Assembly: GCA_048884785.1 (NCBI GenBank)
Contig: JBHLQM010000030.1
Coordinates: forward strand, 6,240 to 37,299
Source: Candidatus Thorarchaeota archaeon
GTDB taxonomy: Archaea > Asgardarchaeota > Thorarchaeia > Thorarchaeales > Thorarchaeaceae
DNA: 31,060 nucleotides
Direction: 5' to 3'
The notes under the pieces are model-generated. The model saw only the letters and a list, made by a program, of their open reading frames with translations, had not been told where the DNA came from and did no database searches. Made by a program: the position numbers and the translations under genes. This document shows positions 756 to 5,830 of the stretch, piece after piece; position 1 is the stretch's first letter; every line of letters starts with the position of its first letter.

Positions 756-1619
756 TTAGCCTTTATTGGACATTCTACTGACTGGCGGTTCAGGTATGTC
801 GCCGACTGTGTCTCTATGAAGTCTGGGAACTTGAGATAGAACAAGTCGATCTCCATTAACTAGCACATCCACGTTGATATGCTCCTTTAGACCACTTGTT
901 GAGATTTTCTTAACAAGAACAGCTTCAACCTGAAAGACACCTGCGGGATTATCCATTGCAACAGTAATATGAAGTGGTTTTTCCTTTCCTTTCTCAAGGA
1001 TAACATCATTGATTGCCATTGCACTGACACTATGTATGTCTACTTTTCCCTGATGAAAGGGAACCATGGTACGTCCCTTGGTCATATCACAGCCATCGCC
1101 CAACTTGGTGATTCCAGCCTCAAGTGTCAGGCATTGCGTGTCGTCATCATGGGCATATATCCCATGAAGTATTGTTGAGAGAATGTCAGAGGCTTTTCCA
1201 GGGTCATCATATATGTGTTCTAGTTTCCTTTCTAAAATCGGAGCTGATAGTTGGATTGCGGCCTGATAGTGTTCTTGTCTATGAATTACCATTCCGAGGT
1301 CATGTAGGTATGTTGAAGCCAACACTACAAGCCGAGCATCATCTGAATCGCCAATACCCTCTGCGACTATATTTGGTTTGAATGTCTGATCAAGTATATC
1401 AAATATCTTCAGAGCGTTCCATGTGGCGACTTCGGCATGTACTGCTCCATGATCAGTATATCCAAGACGCGACACTGCCATTCGATTTGCAGTACGTAGA
1501 TAAGACTGTACTCGAGGAGAACCATGCAAGTATTGGTACATCTCAAGAGATTTTGTGTTTGGTTTGAGAAGCTCTCGAGGGCTCACCTTCTCTCTATCTA
1601 GGACTTGTACGTTATTCAT
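756..1619 (-). CDS. HD-superfamily metal-dependent phosphohydrolase (COG3294-like)
   Basis: Motifs RLGYTDHGAVH, YLHDLG, IYAHD, KLGDGCDMTKGR, DIHSVSA, NPAGVFQV. Confidence 0.85.
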   Translation of the reverse strand: MNNVQVLDREKVSPRELLKPNTKSLEMYQYLHGSPRVQSYLRTANRMAVSRLGYTDHGAVHAEVATWNALKIFDILDQTFKPNIVAEGIGDSDDARLVVLASTYLHDLGMVIHRQEHYQAAIQLSAPILERKLEHIYDDPGKASDILSTILHGIYAHDDDTQCLTLEAGITKLGDGCDMTKGRTMVPFHQGKVDIHSVSAMAINDVILEKGKEKPLHITVAMDNPAGVFQVEAVLVKKISTSGLKEHINVDVLVNGDRLVLSQVPRLHRDTVGDIPEPPVSRMSNKG

Positions 1620-1686: not shown

Positions 1687-4641
1687 TTAGATTTCGCCAG
1701 CTTCTTCCTGAATTGTCATCAGAATTCTGTCAGTCGCTGTCGTGGCCCGCTTTATGGTTTTCAGATAATCCTGTCTGGACTTCTCAAAAGCGGCACGGCT
1801 AATCCTCTGTTTCTTCTTTCTAATGAGGAGTTGGCGAAGGCCAGCTTTGGCACCTTCAATCTTCTCATCTTGCAGCTCAAGTTGAGAGATTAAATCACGA
1901 TAGCGAGCGCCGTGTTGTGATAAATCACTCTTCAGGGAGGGGAGAATGCTATCAGTCTCTTGGATTTGCGTCTTAAGATCACGCTCACGAATCATAAACT
2001 CCTTCTTGCTCACCTTCCCCTTTCGTCTTGCAGCCTCGAGTTTTTCAAAGTCCATTGCAAGAGCAGTCTTTCTAGAGAATGCTTTTGCAAACTCAGAGAG
2101 GAGTTCAGGAGGCGCACCTGCCTGACGGGTTTCGGAGAACCTCTCACCTTCAGTTATTTGCGTAGAGTCTTCAGCGAGATCTGTTCGCCTATACATGATG
2201 TAAAGGCCGGCTATCAGACCAATAATCAATGAGAATACTGCAGGTCTTGCCAGAGCTGTGATATTCGTAGTATAGACCAACGAAATCTGAACGGGATTGT
2301 ATCTCGTAGTGTTGTATGTGACATATTGAACAGTAGTATCAAAGATACCAAATAATAGTCTGTATTCACCACTTGCGGAATTCAAACCTACTGAATTTGG
2401 CAGTATAACATTCACCACATGTTTTGTGATAAGTACGTCTCCCAAGGTCCCCATAGGAAGATTGATGCGGTCGCCTAGTGATTCCTGTGAATAATATCCA
2501 ATCATCTTAACTTTGAAGTCGATGTAGAATGTATACTGGTATCCAGGCCAGAGGCCGTCCTCTCCAAAGCGATCCTTTTGGAGATTCACTTGCAAATCAA
2601 CAGTAGTATTTAGATCCCAAGTGCCGCCAGGTTGAGAATCAGCAAGAATACCTACCTCATCATATATTGTGACCGTTGTCGTATATTCAGGACAGGTAAA
2701 AAGGAAAATACTTTCTCTTGTAGGACCGATATTCTTCAAAGAAATTGTTTCTCTGAAAATAAGCCATCCCCACGGGTCCACAGTCACATCAGTTCTTCTC
2801 TCAGCAACAATAAGCGGAGTGAATGACCTCATTGAAAATGTGAACTTCTCATCCTGCAACGGGACTAAGTTATTCTTTAGTCCTTCAGGACTTGCACCAA
2901 AGAGGCTGTCACCACTTCGAAATGCAAGGGTTAATTGAGAACTCCTTATGACGTAGGGGAGCATTGGATGCCTCGGAAATGTAACTTCATACTCGTTTTC
3001 ATCAAAGTCTGTAAGTGTATGGATTGAATGAAAATGATAGACTATGGTAAATGTATAGCTCTCTTGGAAATCAATTGGGTTGTACATATAGATGCGCCAA
3101 TGTTTGAGCCCCTGATAATCCTCAAGAGACACAATTTCAAGAGCGTTATCTTCACTATCAATGCCAGTTATATCAAGTAGTCTATTGGCATATTCAAATT
3201 GCATGAACATCTCTATTGCGCTGATAGGTGCAGATCCGTTGTTCGTAGCTCTGAATTCATCTCTAACTTCATCAGAATGATAGAGTTTTGAGGAGAATGT
3301 TCGAGTTATATCAAGTTTCATACCCAGAAGTGGCAAGTATGGTCGCTCAATAGTAATATTGACTGATATGATGCCTGTCCGATTTGAGATATCAGTTGCA
3401 TTGAACCAGATTCTATGTACTCCAATAATATACTCTGAGAGGTCAATTGACGTTTCCCACAAATCCGTCTTAAAATCATAGATTATTTCTGACCAATTCT
3501 CATCGTTCATTCGATAGAATGTCCTTCTAACATAGATGTTGTCAGTGATGTTGAGAGATATTTTGGCAACATATCCCAGCGTCGCGTTCTCTTCAGGACT
3601 CAGAATCATAATATCAGGAGCCTGATCCTTAATGAATGTCATTTGTGGGGGGGTTGCCCATTCTGAGTGCTGGATAGGTAGATCCCTAATATCCTCACTA
3701 TCGCTGTACATGAGAACAAACGGATAGGAGATATCAGTCATGTTGAGTAGAGGAATATCATGAGGGTCCGTGCTATTCATTTGGACGTAATATTCCAAAC
3801 GAGTCGTCGACCCATCATCAGTTCCATCAGCAGCAAGAATTCGACTTTGATTTACGTCAGTCTTATGTTGAAATGTGCTTATTCCATACTCATCGCTATA
3901 CACGATTGCACTTCTATCCGCTGGGTCAATGTAGTTGCTGTTGATTCTTGTTAGAGTAATGACGTACTCCAAATCTTCTCCGTACATAGGATGACTTGGC
4001 TGATTATAGGCGTCTTTTGCGGGAATGATGAAATGTCTCACTTCCCCAATTCGCATCCCAATTATCATATCTTTGTAGCCCTGAAGGAGACTCTCTTGGG
4101 ATATTGGAGTTGTAGACTCATCATTCGGAACATCGCCTTCCTCGAGTATTGTTCCATTTCGATGGGAGAGAACATAATGAACTGAAACGACATCACTTGG
4201 TCCCACGCGAGGAACATTGTCATATACTTCTCCCGGGGTATATCCGAAGAGGAGATCAGAATTGTTCAGCCCATCTTCTTTGAAGTCATCTGTATAGTTC
4301 TTCCAGCCAATAGCAATCCATCCACTAGTGTCAGCTTCAAGACCAACAAATAGTACTGTAGCATTCTGCTCCATGTATACGGTGATTCCTGTTATTGAGT
4401 CTGTGTAGCTAAATGCGTATTCTGTGGGATCGATAATGCCATCCGCACTACCGTAATGTTTGTAGACATAGGGAATAGATAGATTGAGAAGTGACTCCGA
4501 AGCCTGCGCTTGCTGCTTTATGCTTGGATTCACTAGACTCGAATCCCATGTGTCATCTACTGGTATAGTCGCCATGATACTACTCGAGAAGAGAAGTGTC
4601 AGTAACAGTATAGATGCAATTCTTTGATTCAGTAGACCCAA
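1687..4641 (-). CDS. Type-I membrane protein: signal peptide, DOMON-like domain with inserted FKBP-type PPIase, Ig-like domain, ribophorin I (OST1/RPN1)-like luminal domains, TM helix, helical cytoplasmic tail
   Basis: TTG start with GGTGA upstream; hydrophobic signal aa 8-24; DOMON motifs GWIAIGW...SDLLFG and D.Y...H..D...G.DDG.TT.LEY...D.HD...H; FKBP motifs DVVSVHY, QGYKDMIIGMRIGE...IPAKDAY, HPMYGEDLEY; ribophorin I motifs RTDVTVDPWGWLIFRETISLKNIG, TIYDEVG, RF...LWPGYQYTFYIDF, VVNVILP; TM aa ~797-817. Confidence 0.8.
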   Translation of the reverse strand: MGLLNQRIASILLLTLLFSSSIMATIPVDDTWDSSLVNPSIKQQAQASESLLNLSIPYVYKHYGSADGIIDPTEYAFSYTDSITGITVYMEQNATVLFVGLEADTSGWIAIGWKNYTDDFKEDGLNNSDLLFGYTPGEVYDNVPRVGPSDVVSVHYVLSHRNGTILEEGDVPNDESTTPISQESLLQGYKDMIIGMRIGEVRHFIIPAKDAYNQPSHPMYGEDLEYVITLTRINSNYIDPADRSAIVYSDEYGISTFQHKTDVNQSRILAADGTDDGSTTRLEYYVQMNSTDPHDIPLLNMTDISYPFVLMYSDSEDIRDLPIQHSEWATPPQMTFIKDQAPDIMILSPEENATLGYVAKISLNITDNIYVRRTFYRMNDENWSEIIYDFKTDLWETSIDLSEYIIGVHRIWFNATDISNRTGIISVNITIERPYLPLLGMKLDITRTFSSKLYHSDEVRDEFRATNNGSAPISAIEMFMQFEYANRLLDITGIDSEDNALEIVSLEDYQGLKHWRIYMYNPIDFQESYTFTIVYHFHSIHTLTDFDENEYEVTFPRHPMLPYVIRSSQLTLAFRSGDSLFGASPEGLKNNLVPLQDEKFTFSMRSFTPLIVAERRTDVTVDPWGWLIFRETISLKNIGPTRESIFLFTCPEYTTTVTIYDEVGILADSQPGGTWDLNTTVDLQVNLQKDRFGEDGLWPGYQYTFYIDFKVKMIGYYSQESLGDRINLPMGTLGDVLITKHVVNVILPNSVGLNSASGEYRLLFGIFDTTVQYVTYNTTRYNPVQISLVYTTNITALARPAVFSLIIGLIAGLYIMYRRTDLAEDSTQITEGERFSETRQAGAPPELLSEFAKAFSRKTALAMDFEKLEAARRKGKVSKKEFMIRERDLKTQIQETDSILPSLKSDLSQHGARYRDLISQLELQDEKIEGAKAGLRQLLIRKKKQRISRAAFEKSRQDYLKTIKRATTATDRILMTIQEEAGEI

Positions 4642-4819
4642 TACTAATCACCGTTATTGTTATAGGGCTATGGCGGCCTCAGCGGCCGGACCTATGAACG
4701 ATGCGCTCCAGTTTCGGGTTCGTTAAAATAGTTTCCGTTAGATTAGACCTTGTACCTAGTGCGAAAAACGAAAAGCGTAAAATGGCTATCATGCTGCGGA
4801 ACTTAAGGAGAATAATTGA

Positions 4820-5830
4820 ATGCTGACCATCCTAATCGCTCTGCTGCTATCATTCATCATTGTTTTGATTTTCATGCCAGGAACCATACAATTACTGAGA
4901 GAAAGAAACATGGTGGGCATAGATGTTCACAAGCCAAATAGGCCAGAGGTTCCAAAGGGAGGCGGTTTTCTTGTCCTCTTTGCCATTGTAGCTGCACTCC
5001 TAGTGGTAATTGGGATAGCTACTTTCCAACAAGGAACCGTAAATCCCGGCCTGCTTGCAGCACTTGTGTCGATTTTGATGGCGGGAATGATCGGACTTCT
5101 GGATGATAATTTTGATTTTAGAAACAGAACCAAAGTGACCCTGCCAATAGTAGCATCAATTCCTATGATAGTAATGCAAGTCGGTACAACCACCATGCAG
5201 GTTCCCTTCATTGGAACTCTAGACCTCGGAATCATCTATCCCTTGATTGTGGTGCCTCTAATGATGACCTTCATTATTGATTCTACCAATATGTATGCCG
5301 GCATGAATGGTCTAGAAGCCGGTCTTTCCATAGTAAATTCATCAGCATTGGTATTCTACCTAATATTGAGGCCAATCGCAACCGGAGATCAATTGACTGG
5401 AGCACAGATTGATGCAGGAACTGTTGCTGCAGCTCTCCTTGGGGCATCAATAGCATTTCTTGTATTCAACAGATATCCGGCAAGAATCCTGTCCGGAGAT
5501 GTTGGTCTTCTTCCCATAGGGGCAACGATGGCATCAGCATTAATTCTTGGAAATATGGATAGATTGGCATTTGTTTTCTATGCACCCTTCATGGTTAATT
5601 TCCTTCTCTATGTCGTCTACAGACTCCATGTTAAGAAAACAAATGAGAGGTGGACCAAGTTTGCTAGCCCCAGGGAAGACGGAACTCTCGAGGTCATTGG
5701 ACCATATACATTATACTGGATACTGCCTTCAGTTTCAAGAAAGATTACCGAAAAGAGAAATGTCATTTTGCTTGTCCTCGGACAGGCAATTCTGGTGTAT
5801 ATTGCACTTGGATTCATCCTATTTGGATAG
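4820..5830 (+). CDS. aglH: UDP-GlcNAc:dolichyl/polyprenyl-phosphate GlcNAc-1-phosphate transferase (GPT/DPAGT1/AglH; MraY/GT4 family)
   Basis: Polytopic membrane protein with GIDVHKP.RP.VPKGGG, GLLDD, NMYAGMNGLEAG and FNRYPARILSGDVG; AGGAG upstream of ATG. Confidence 0.85.
   Translation: MLTILIALLLSFIIVLIFMPGTIQLLRERNMVGIDVHKPNRPEVPKGGGFLVLFAIVAALLVVIGIATFQQGTVNPGLLAALVSILMAGMIGLLDDNFDFRNRTKVTLPIVASIPMIVMQVGTTTMQVPFIGTLDLGIIYPLIVVPLMMTFIIDSTNMYAGMNGLEAGLSIVNSSALVFYLILRPIATGDQLTGAQIDAGTVAAALLGASIAFLVFNRYPARILSGDVGLLPIGATMASALILGNMDRLAFVFYAPFMVNFLLYVVYRLHVKKTNERWTKFASPREDGTLEVIGPYTLYWILPSVSRKITEKRNVILLVLGQAILVYIALGFILFG

Follow-up and report, generated by a model that had tools for sequence, protein, structure and literature searches.

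An FKBP domain nested in a DOMON sandwich at the head of a Thorarchaeial ribophorin I/OST1 homologue

We analysed a stretch of 31,060 nucleotides, hereafter the window, from a Candidatus Thorarchaeota archaeon (GenBank assembly GCA_048884785.1, contig JBHLQM010000030.1, positions 6,240 to 37,299 of the forward strand), which lies in a genome bin of 3.6 Mb that is 91% complete. Our subject is one gene on its minus strand, an open reading frame (ORF) of 984 amino acids (aa) at 1687..4641 (-). From the ORF and its homologues, we identify the product as a homologue of ribophorin I/OST1, a subunit of the oligosaccharyltransferase (OST), with an N-terminal head in which an FKBP domain sits inside a DOMON domain and is followed by an Ig-like domain. 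An earlier note on this DNA, made from the sequence alone, had proposed an FKBP nested inside a DOMON fold at 3658-4446 (-), which corresponds to aa 66-328 of this ORF. The parts of the protein follow one another in the order signal peptide, DOMON with nested FKBP, Ig-like domain, ribophorin I sandwiches, transmembrane helix and a tail of the ribosome-binding type. More than 217 homologues of ~930-995 aa match the ORF, nearly all labelled Thorarchaeota, and public records name them either 'FKBP-type peptidyl-prolyl cis-trans isomerase' or hypothetical.

The signal peptide (4567..4641 (-), aa 1-25) depends on a TTG start at 4641, which yields the N-terminus MGLLNQRIASILLLTLLFSSSIMA... with a hydrophobic segment at aa 7-25. 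Because the family consensus likewise begins with a conserved hydrophobic stretch, this start is more likely to be the true one than Met23. A database protein of 100% identity (P0002, 962 aa) begins at Met23 and would lose the hydrophobic signal peptide.

An FKBP domain within a DOMON sandwich

The DOMON domain is encoded in two pieces. Its N-terminal half (4234..4488 (-), aa ~52-136) carries the motif DG.I...EY at aa 67-75, the stretch GWIAIGW and Leu125, and its C-terminal half (3634..3909 (-), aa 245-336) carries SDEYG..FQH (with His259), a strand with the sequence TRLEY, and LPIQHSEW, which contains His325 and Trp328. The segment between them (3910..4233 (-), aa 137-244) consists of a linker, an FKBP domain and a second linker, as recognised by Pfam, HMMER and structural search. 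Pfam FKBP_C matches nt 3952-4203 (-), aa 147-230 (E 3e-7), with 31.1 bits against a cut-off of 21.1 and over profile positions 6-93 of 94, close to the nt ~3940-4209 given in the earlier note. The junction drawn there was also borne out; the DOMON domain itself extends further than had been stated, from ~aa 52 (nt 4488) to ~aa 336 (nt 3634).

We searched aa 25-345 for homologues with HMMER, exhaustively over 1.84 billion representatives. Relatives of ~200-260 aa align to query residues ~27-110 and ~211-301 while remaining contiguous in the target, and all ten of the DOMON-only relatives that were scanned match PF03351 (E 1e-11 to 1e-18). Among 147 representative matches, 55 are contiguous DOMONs that cover both flanks and 61 are FKBP-only; the order DOMON-N, FKBP, DOMON-C occurs in only 5, plus one fragment. 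A MAFFT alignment puts ~108 extra residues of the query at the very point where the relatives have a tight hairpin, with the junction running from ...SDLLFGY(TPGE) at aa ~136 to (RS)AIVYSDEYG at aa ~245. We then excised the insert in silico and compared the sequence with a hidden Markov model of 204 positions built from 20 DOMON-only relatives. The rejoined flanks (aa 25-136 and 245-345) match as one domain, over positions 23-193 and with 115.7 bits; the intact sequence matches in two pieces, at positions 23-108 and 112-193, and the insert alone gives no match to this profile.

A structure model leads to the same arrangement. AlphaFold2, run on aa 25-345 with 48 homologues, gave a model with a predicted local distance difference test score (pLDDT) of 86 and a predicted template modelling score (pTM) of 0.81. 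Because pTM reaches 0.81, the DOMON and FKBP domains can be read as a single rigid body in this model. In an exhaustive structural search with VIA, chains of the DOMON superfamily cover both halves (model residues ~28-318, 141-186 residues aligned). These include the gamma subunit of ethylbenzene dehydrogenase (EBDH; 2ivf_C, Z 16.1, 168 aligned), Nxr gamma (7b04_C, Z 15.6), the DBH DOMON (4zel_B, Z 13.7), the CDH cytochrome domain (1d7c_A, Z 12.6) and CBM9 (1i82_A, Z 12.5). FKBP chains align to model residues 117-213 only, namely SlyD (3cgm_A, Z 11.9, root-mean-square deviation (rmsd) 2.0, 84 aligned) and FKBP2 (2pbc_A, Z 11.7, rmsd 2.1, 92 aligned). The flanks therefore form one DOMON-type sandwich and the insert an FKBP fold, as the earlier note had proposed. 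We regard the insertion of the FKBP domain at a beta-hairpin tip of the DOMON sandwich as real and far beyond chance.

The split DOMON is easily missed. Foldseek against the Protein Data Bank (PDB) with the nested model returned 96 matches at E<=0.001, and those listed are all FKBP-type peptidyl-prolyl isomerases (PPIases); the DOMON fold emerged from the VIA search only. Pfam DOMON has no match in the whole protein (E<=1) or in either half (E<=10), and the best among the 7 of 49 orthologues that do match has E 3.2e-5. The profile of 20 DOMON-only relatives found no chain among PDB sequences at E<=10. A search of the source genome for PF03351 gave no match, but the control matched in no genome either.

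The inserted segment holds a complete but minimal FKBP domain. In the model it consists of four strands with one helix, the first strand of FKBP12 being absent. Only 14 residues separate Y212 from Y226, which leaves no room for an insert-in-flap (IF) domain, and the alignment to SlyD accordingly takes in 84 residues and skips the SlyD IF domain (chain range 1-137). The domain had been called SlyD-like: the label fits the flap, which is short, and the absence of the first strand, but the closest FKBPs of solved structure in sequence terms are wheat FKBP73, FKBP11 and FKBP2, and membership of the SlyD family is ruled out by the missing IF domain. Several VIA alignments to FKBP12-type chains begin at model residue ~39. 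We considered that an N-terminal DOMON segment might supply the missing first FKBP strand and set the idea aside as unsupported, as DSSP shows no strand there.

The OST1 body, its distribution and its neighbours

Beyond the DOMON domain lies an Ig-like domain (3352..3618 (-), aa ~342-430), a weak match to Big_7 (PF17957) in this protein (E 0.12). It is followed by an extracytoplasmic double beta-sandwich (2269..3327 (-), aa ~439-791), a transmembrane helix (2164..2262 (-), aa ~794-826; hydropathy segment 793-811, long helix at model residues 365-397) and a cytoplasmic helical domain (1720..2148 (-), aa ~832-974). An AlphaFold2 model of aa 430-835 has a pLDDT of 90.4. With this model the top eight Foldseek matches are all human or yeast RPN1/Ost1 (E 2e-22 to 6e-17, TMq 0.63-0.72), with 8b6l_O best (E 2.2e-22, TMq 0.70) and the first match outside RPN1/Ost1 at E 6e-7. 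VIA agrees, with human RPN1 (6s7o_E) at Z 29.5, yeast Ost1 (6c26_1) at Z 26.2 and the next fold at Z 13.0. Pfam Ribophorin_I (PF04597) has no match in the whole protein (E<=1) or in aa 328-984 (E<=10), and a Pfam scan of the latter segment gave nothing relevant at E<=10. Among 49 orthologues, Pfam matched FKBP_C in 49, Big_7 in 22 (best E 2e-11), Ribophorin_I in 8 (best E 9.6e-10) and DOMON in 7.

The family profile matches the tail to the cytoplasmic domain of OST1 from Prometheoarchaeum MK-D1 (8whn_A, E 2.1e-8), a domain that binds eukaryotic ribosomes (PMC11417166). Conservation in the protein is also highest in the tail (aa 832-974, window 1720-2148 (-)), where columns that are at least 90% identical follow one another in long runs. 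Taken together, the protein is a ribophorin I/OST1 subunit, of which the nested module forms the membrane-distal head; Asgard Ost1 as such is already known (PMC10307638). A signal peptide and a single transmembrane helix indicate type I topology, none of the 18 N-x-S/T sequons lies beyond the transmembrane segment, and the topology read from these features places the nested head on the extracytoplasmic side. Eight of the sequons fall in the nested head (window 3740-4485 (-), aa 53-302), and most of these are conserved across 116 orthologues (N53, N93, N115, N126, N162, N289 and N300).

To delimit the distribution of the head, we sampled 300 genomes across the phylum, and 301 genomes for OST1. 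In the family to which the window belongs, 73 of 76 genomes carry the full nested head, as does the single genome of a sister family, where the protein shares 40% identity in a 1034-aa ORF. No full head was found in the other 28 families sampled, in which only FKBP-only or DOMON-half matches occur. The OST1 part is far wider, in 242 of the 301 genomes, with ORFs of ~566-640 aa outside the order. Among the sampled genomes the head is thus an order-specific addition and, because it is found in one order only, a lineage-specific innovation rather than an ancestral eukaryote-like trait.

Two of the 76 sampled family genomes also encode short paralogues of ~570-600 aa (G299:C125:6285-7160 and G182:C23:20701-21606; proteins P0124 and P0125). 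These have a signal peptide, the same FKBP-in-DOMON head, Ig-like domains, a Ser/Thr-rich linker and a C-terminal transmembrane helix, with no ribophorin part. The paralogue in G299 (L012:3630-5390 (+)) adjoins a UbiA prenyltransferase and carotenoid-synthesis genes rather than the GT4 gene that flanks the full-length form.

That GT4 gene, outside the nested module, is the divergent neighbour of OST1 in the window (4820..5830 (+); AglH/Alg7-type, GlcNAc-1-P transferase-like; PF00953, E 9.5e-29). We compared three loci (window 4642-5830, L010:6190-7167 and L011:2361-3413): the head-to-head OST1/GT4 pair, followed by topoisomerase VI subunit A, is kept in the sister family (G112) and in another genus of the order (G075). 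The other neighbours in the window are archaeal (topoisomerase VI A and B, RIO1, NMD3, FEN1, CDC48 and a Hef-type helicase). The catalytic subunit STT3/AglB lies outside the OST1/GT4 locus, as a 698-aa ORF on another contig (C49:8876-9400, E 5e-37). Downstream of OST1, a 287-aa ORF (window 756-1619 (-)) has a weak HD-domain match below the cut-off (E 5e-4). The equivalent positions in G112 and G075 hold ORFs of similar length, 290 and 288 aa, with no Pfam match at E<=1e-4.

Pocket residues and the proposed function

HMMER alignments to FKBP2 and FKBP11 equate Y156 with Tyr26, L166 with Phe36, E167 with Asp37, L185/L186 with Val55/Ile56, Y189 with Trp59 and Y212 with Tyr82 of the FKBP pocket, and a manual alignment equates Y226 with Phe99. 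The substitutions F36L, D37E, W59Y and F99Y listed in the earlier note, and the two retained tyrosines, are thereby upheld. All 116 orthologues keep Y156, Y212 and the motif GMRxGE, and the aromatic positions vary little (Y189 is Tyr in 114 and Phe in 2, Y226 Tyr in 112 and Phe in 4). The linkers are conserved as well, with R145 in 115 of 116 sequences and N239/P240 retained.

In the DOMON half of the head, we asked what became of the haem site. CDH/CYBDOM domains ligate haem by a Met in the motif SxDxxMGxD and a His ~93-98 residues later (PMC10691727). Our equivalences rest on this motif and spacing together with the alignment to DOMON-only relatives. The Met position is Leu125 in the query, as the earlier note had seen, and Leu, Ile or Phe in the orthologues (105, 10 and 1 of 116), never Met, His or Lys; contiguous DOMON-only relatives have Met (or His or Lys) there. 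The sequon N126-N-S128 sits in the loop that bears this Met in other DOMONs. The C-terminal His325 is retained in 104 sequences (Arg in 11, Gln in 1), His259 in 111 and the family-specific Trp328 in 113. The enzyme ALAD (porphobilinogen synthase, PF00490) was found in none of 58 family genomes of at least 85% completeness, the control being found in 11 of 14 reference genomes, which suggests that the family makes no tetrapyrroles. Both observations support the view that this DOMON, which has lost the haem-ligating Met, is a non-haem domain.

We propose that the OST1 head is a PPIase and/or holdase tethered to the translocon-OST assembly that acts on emerging chains, and we give this reading a probability of about 0.55. 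The head would stand on the external face of the membrane, beside the exit of the Sec channel and the active site of AglB/STT3. There the FKBP domain would act on unfolded chains that are newly translocated or glycosylated, as a prolyl isomerase, a holdase or both. The role of the haem-less DOMON would be that of a rigid pedestal and, because the pocket residues His259, His325 and Trp328 are still conserved, perhaps also that of a secondary binding surface for a glycan, metal or peptide. The earlier note had cast the DOMON as a possibly sugar-binding recruiter of substrates in place of the missing IF domain. Since the module is the distal head of a ribophorin I/OST1 subunit, delivery of substrates by the translocon and OST themselves accounts more simply for how the FKBP would meet its chains. 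Human FKBP11 offers a parallel, as a membrane FKBP at the OST-A translocon (PMC12804085).

Several points weigh against this proposal. In the FKBP pocket, the position of D37 is taken by Gln in 89 of the 116 orthologues and by Glu in 25 (Glu in the query), that of F36 by Ile, Leu or Val, and a polar ESTTP stretch stands in place of the F46/F48 strand; because these residues differ from FKBP12, catalysis could be weak or lost. The pocket of human FKBP11 is buried by CCDC134, and the authors of that work argue against an isomerase role (PMC12804085). The association with AglB and Sec61 is inferred by homology only. Finally, since the short paralogues carry the head without a ribophorin part and in an unrelated neighbourhood, the nested module does not strictly need OST.

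The alternative that survives best, although we think it considerably less probable, is that the FKBP does not catalyse but serves as a binding or adaptor module that holds a fixed partner, such as an OST or translocon subunit or a proline-containing loop. The pocket changes just described (D37 equivalent mostly Gln, F36 aliphatic, F46/F48 strand polar) would suit such a role, as would the precedent of FKBP11, with its buried pocket and disputed isomerase activity, and the seemingly rigid embedding of the domain (pTM 0.81, conserved linkers). The invariant Tyr26 and Tyr82 equivalents and the Tyr at the W59 and F99 equivalents across the 116 sequences speak against it, and SlyD-type FKBPs, which also lack Trp59, remain active.

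An unlikely alternative makes the head a cell-surface lectin or adhesion unit that was recruited onto OST1, with a glycan-binding DOMON at its centre and the FKBP as an accessory. The short paralogues bear the same head without a ribophorin part or a GT4 neighbour, the DOMON superfamily includes CBM9 (Z 12.5 in our search), and His259, His325 and Trp328 are conserved in the absence of the haem Met. In animals and rice, moreover, ribophorin I binds the lectin malectin (PMC9144812). Against this, no sugar-binding residues could be mapped, and in fold the module comes nearest to haem-b DOMONs (EBDH gamma and Nxr gamma), with CBM9 level with the CDH cytochrome domain. The motif DG.I...EY, which had been taken as a CBM9-like hint of sugar binding, is equally conserved in Met-bearing DOMON-only relatives and is therefore no sign of it. 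The short paralogues, for their part, occur in 2 of 76 family genomes, where the OST1 form is near-universal.

A bolder variant, which we hold to be just as doubtful, would join the two activities: the DOMON might be a lectin that reads N-glycans freshly attached by AglB/STT3, or the conserved glycan that the module itself bears at N126, where the haem loop used to be. In that case one polypeptide would unite a lectin and a prolyl isomerase at the translocon as a checkpoint for glycoprotein folding. If true, the archaeal head would have arrived by convergence at a counterpart of the pairings of malectin with ribophorin I and of FKBP11 with OST-A in the eukaryotic endoplasmic reticulum.

That the DOMON still holds a redox cofactor for extracellular electron transfer, for example scavenged haem on His325 or on His259 and His325, is very improbable: the conservation of both histidines and the haem-b subunits among the best structural matches favour it, but His325 gives way to Arg or Gln in 12 sequences and the fusion partner is a glycosylation subunit rather than a redox enzyme, and we reject haem binding because the ligand Met is replaced in all 116 sequences and ALAD was not found in the 58 family genomes searched.

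Comparison with known systems

The body of the protein has the same double beta-sandwich and transmembrane helix (aa ~439-826) and the same type I topology as RPN1/Ost1 of human (6S7O, 8B6L) and yeast (6EZN, 6C26), and its cytoplasmic domain is homologous to that of MK-D1 OST1 (8WHN). It differs from eukaryotic Ost1 and from other Asgard OST1 ORFs (~570-640 aa) by ~400 extra N-terminal residues; those proteins have no room for the head.

As an FKBP, the inserted domain shares its fold with FKBP2/FKBP13, FKBP11 and SlyD/SlpA, including the Tyr26 and Tyr82 equivalents and a GM.xGE motif. FKBP11 is likewise extracytoplasmic and beside OST, a location that we assign here by homology. In contrast to FKBP-type PPIases that are free-standing or terminal, the Thorarchaeial domain is inserted in another domain, and it has Leu or Ile, Glu or Gln, Tyr and Tyr at the equivalents of F36, D37, W59 and F99, with a polar F46/F48 strand. 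SlyD has a similarly short flap and also lacks the first strand, but the Thorarchaeial domain has neither the IF domain nor the metal-binding tail of SlyD.

The host domain belongs with the DOMON superfamily by its sandwich, by sequence homology to PF03351 proteins of ~200 aa and by the C-terminal His in 90% of orthologues. It departs from the superfamily in being interrupted by a 108-aa FKBP segment, in the replacement of the haem Met by Leu, Ile or Phe, in a family in which ALAD was not found, and in escaping Pfam DOMON in the query.

The design itself has precedents. In SurA, PrsA and PpiD, which carry parvulin inserts, and in trigger factor, which carries an FKBP, two linkers connect the PPIase domain to a host domain that is discontinuous in sequence, and PrsA and SurA work beyond the cytoplasmic membrane, on chains that have just been translocated. 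The inserted-PPIase design is alike; the hosts of these proteins, in contrast, are helical chaperone domains with no homology to the DOMON host, which is a ligand-binding sandwich, and the Thorarchaeial module shares one polypeptide with an OST subunit. SlyD is the topological converse, with a chaperone IF domain inserted into an FKBP. All three folds are known; what is new is the nesting of FKBP inside DOMON and its attachment to OST1. In the literature on DOMON with FKBP, on DOMON with ribophorin or Thorarchaeota, and on Asgard OST1, we did not find this architecture described, which does not prove that no description exists. As a clean natural insertion of one well-studied fold into another, with contiguous relatives at hand, it should be of use in engineering proteins and in annotating domains, where the lesson is that Pfam misses the split DOMON.

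Among the translocon proteins that Asgard archaea possess, ribophorin I/OST1 is one of those termed 'eukaryotic signature', and the Thorarchaeial head suggests that OST1 can act as a platform for the handling of nascent chains at the external face of the membrane. Eukaryotes use separate partners for the same need, FKBP11 at OST-A and malectin on ribophorin I. As far as the analogy reaches, the likeness of the Thorarchaeial protein to these arrangements is one of convergence and not of ancestry, because the head is restricted to one order.

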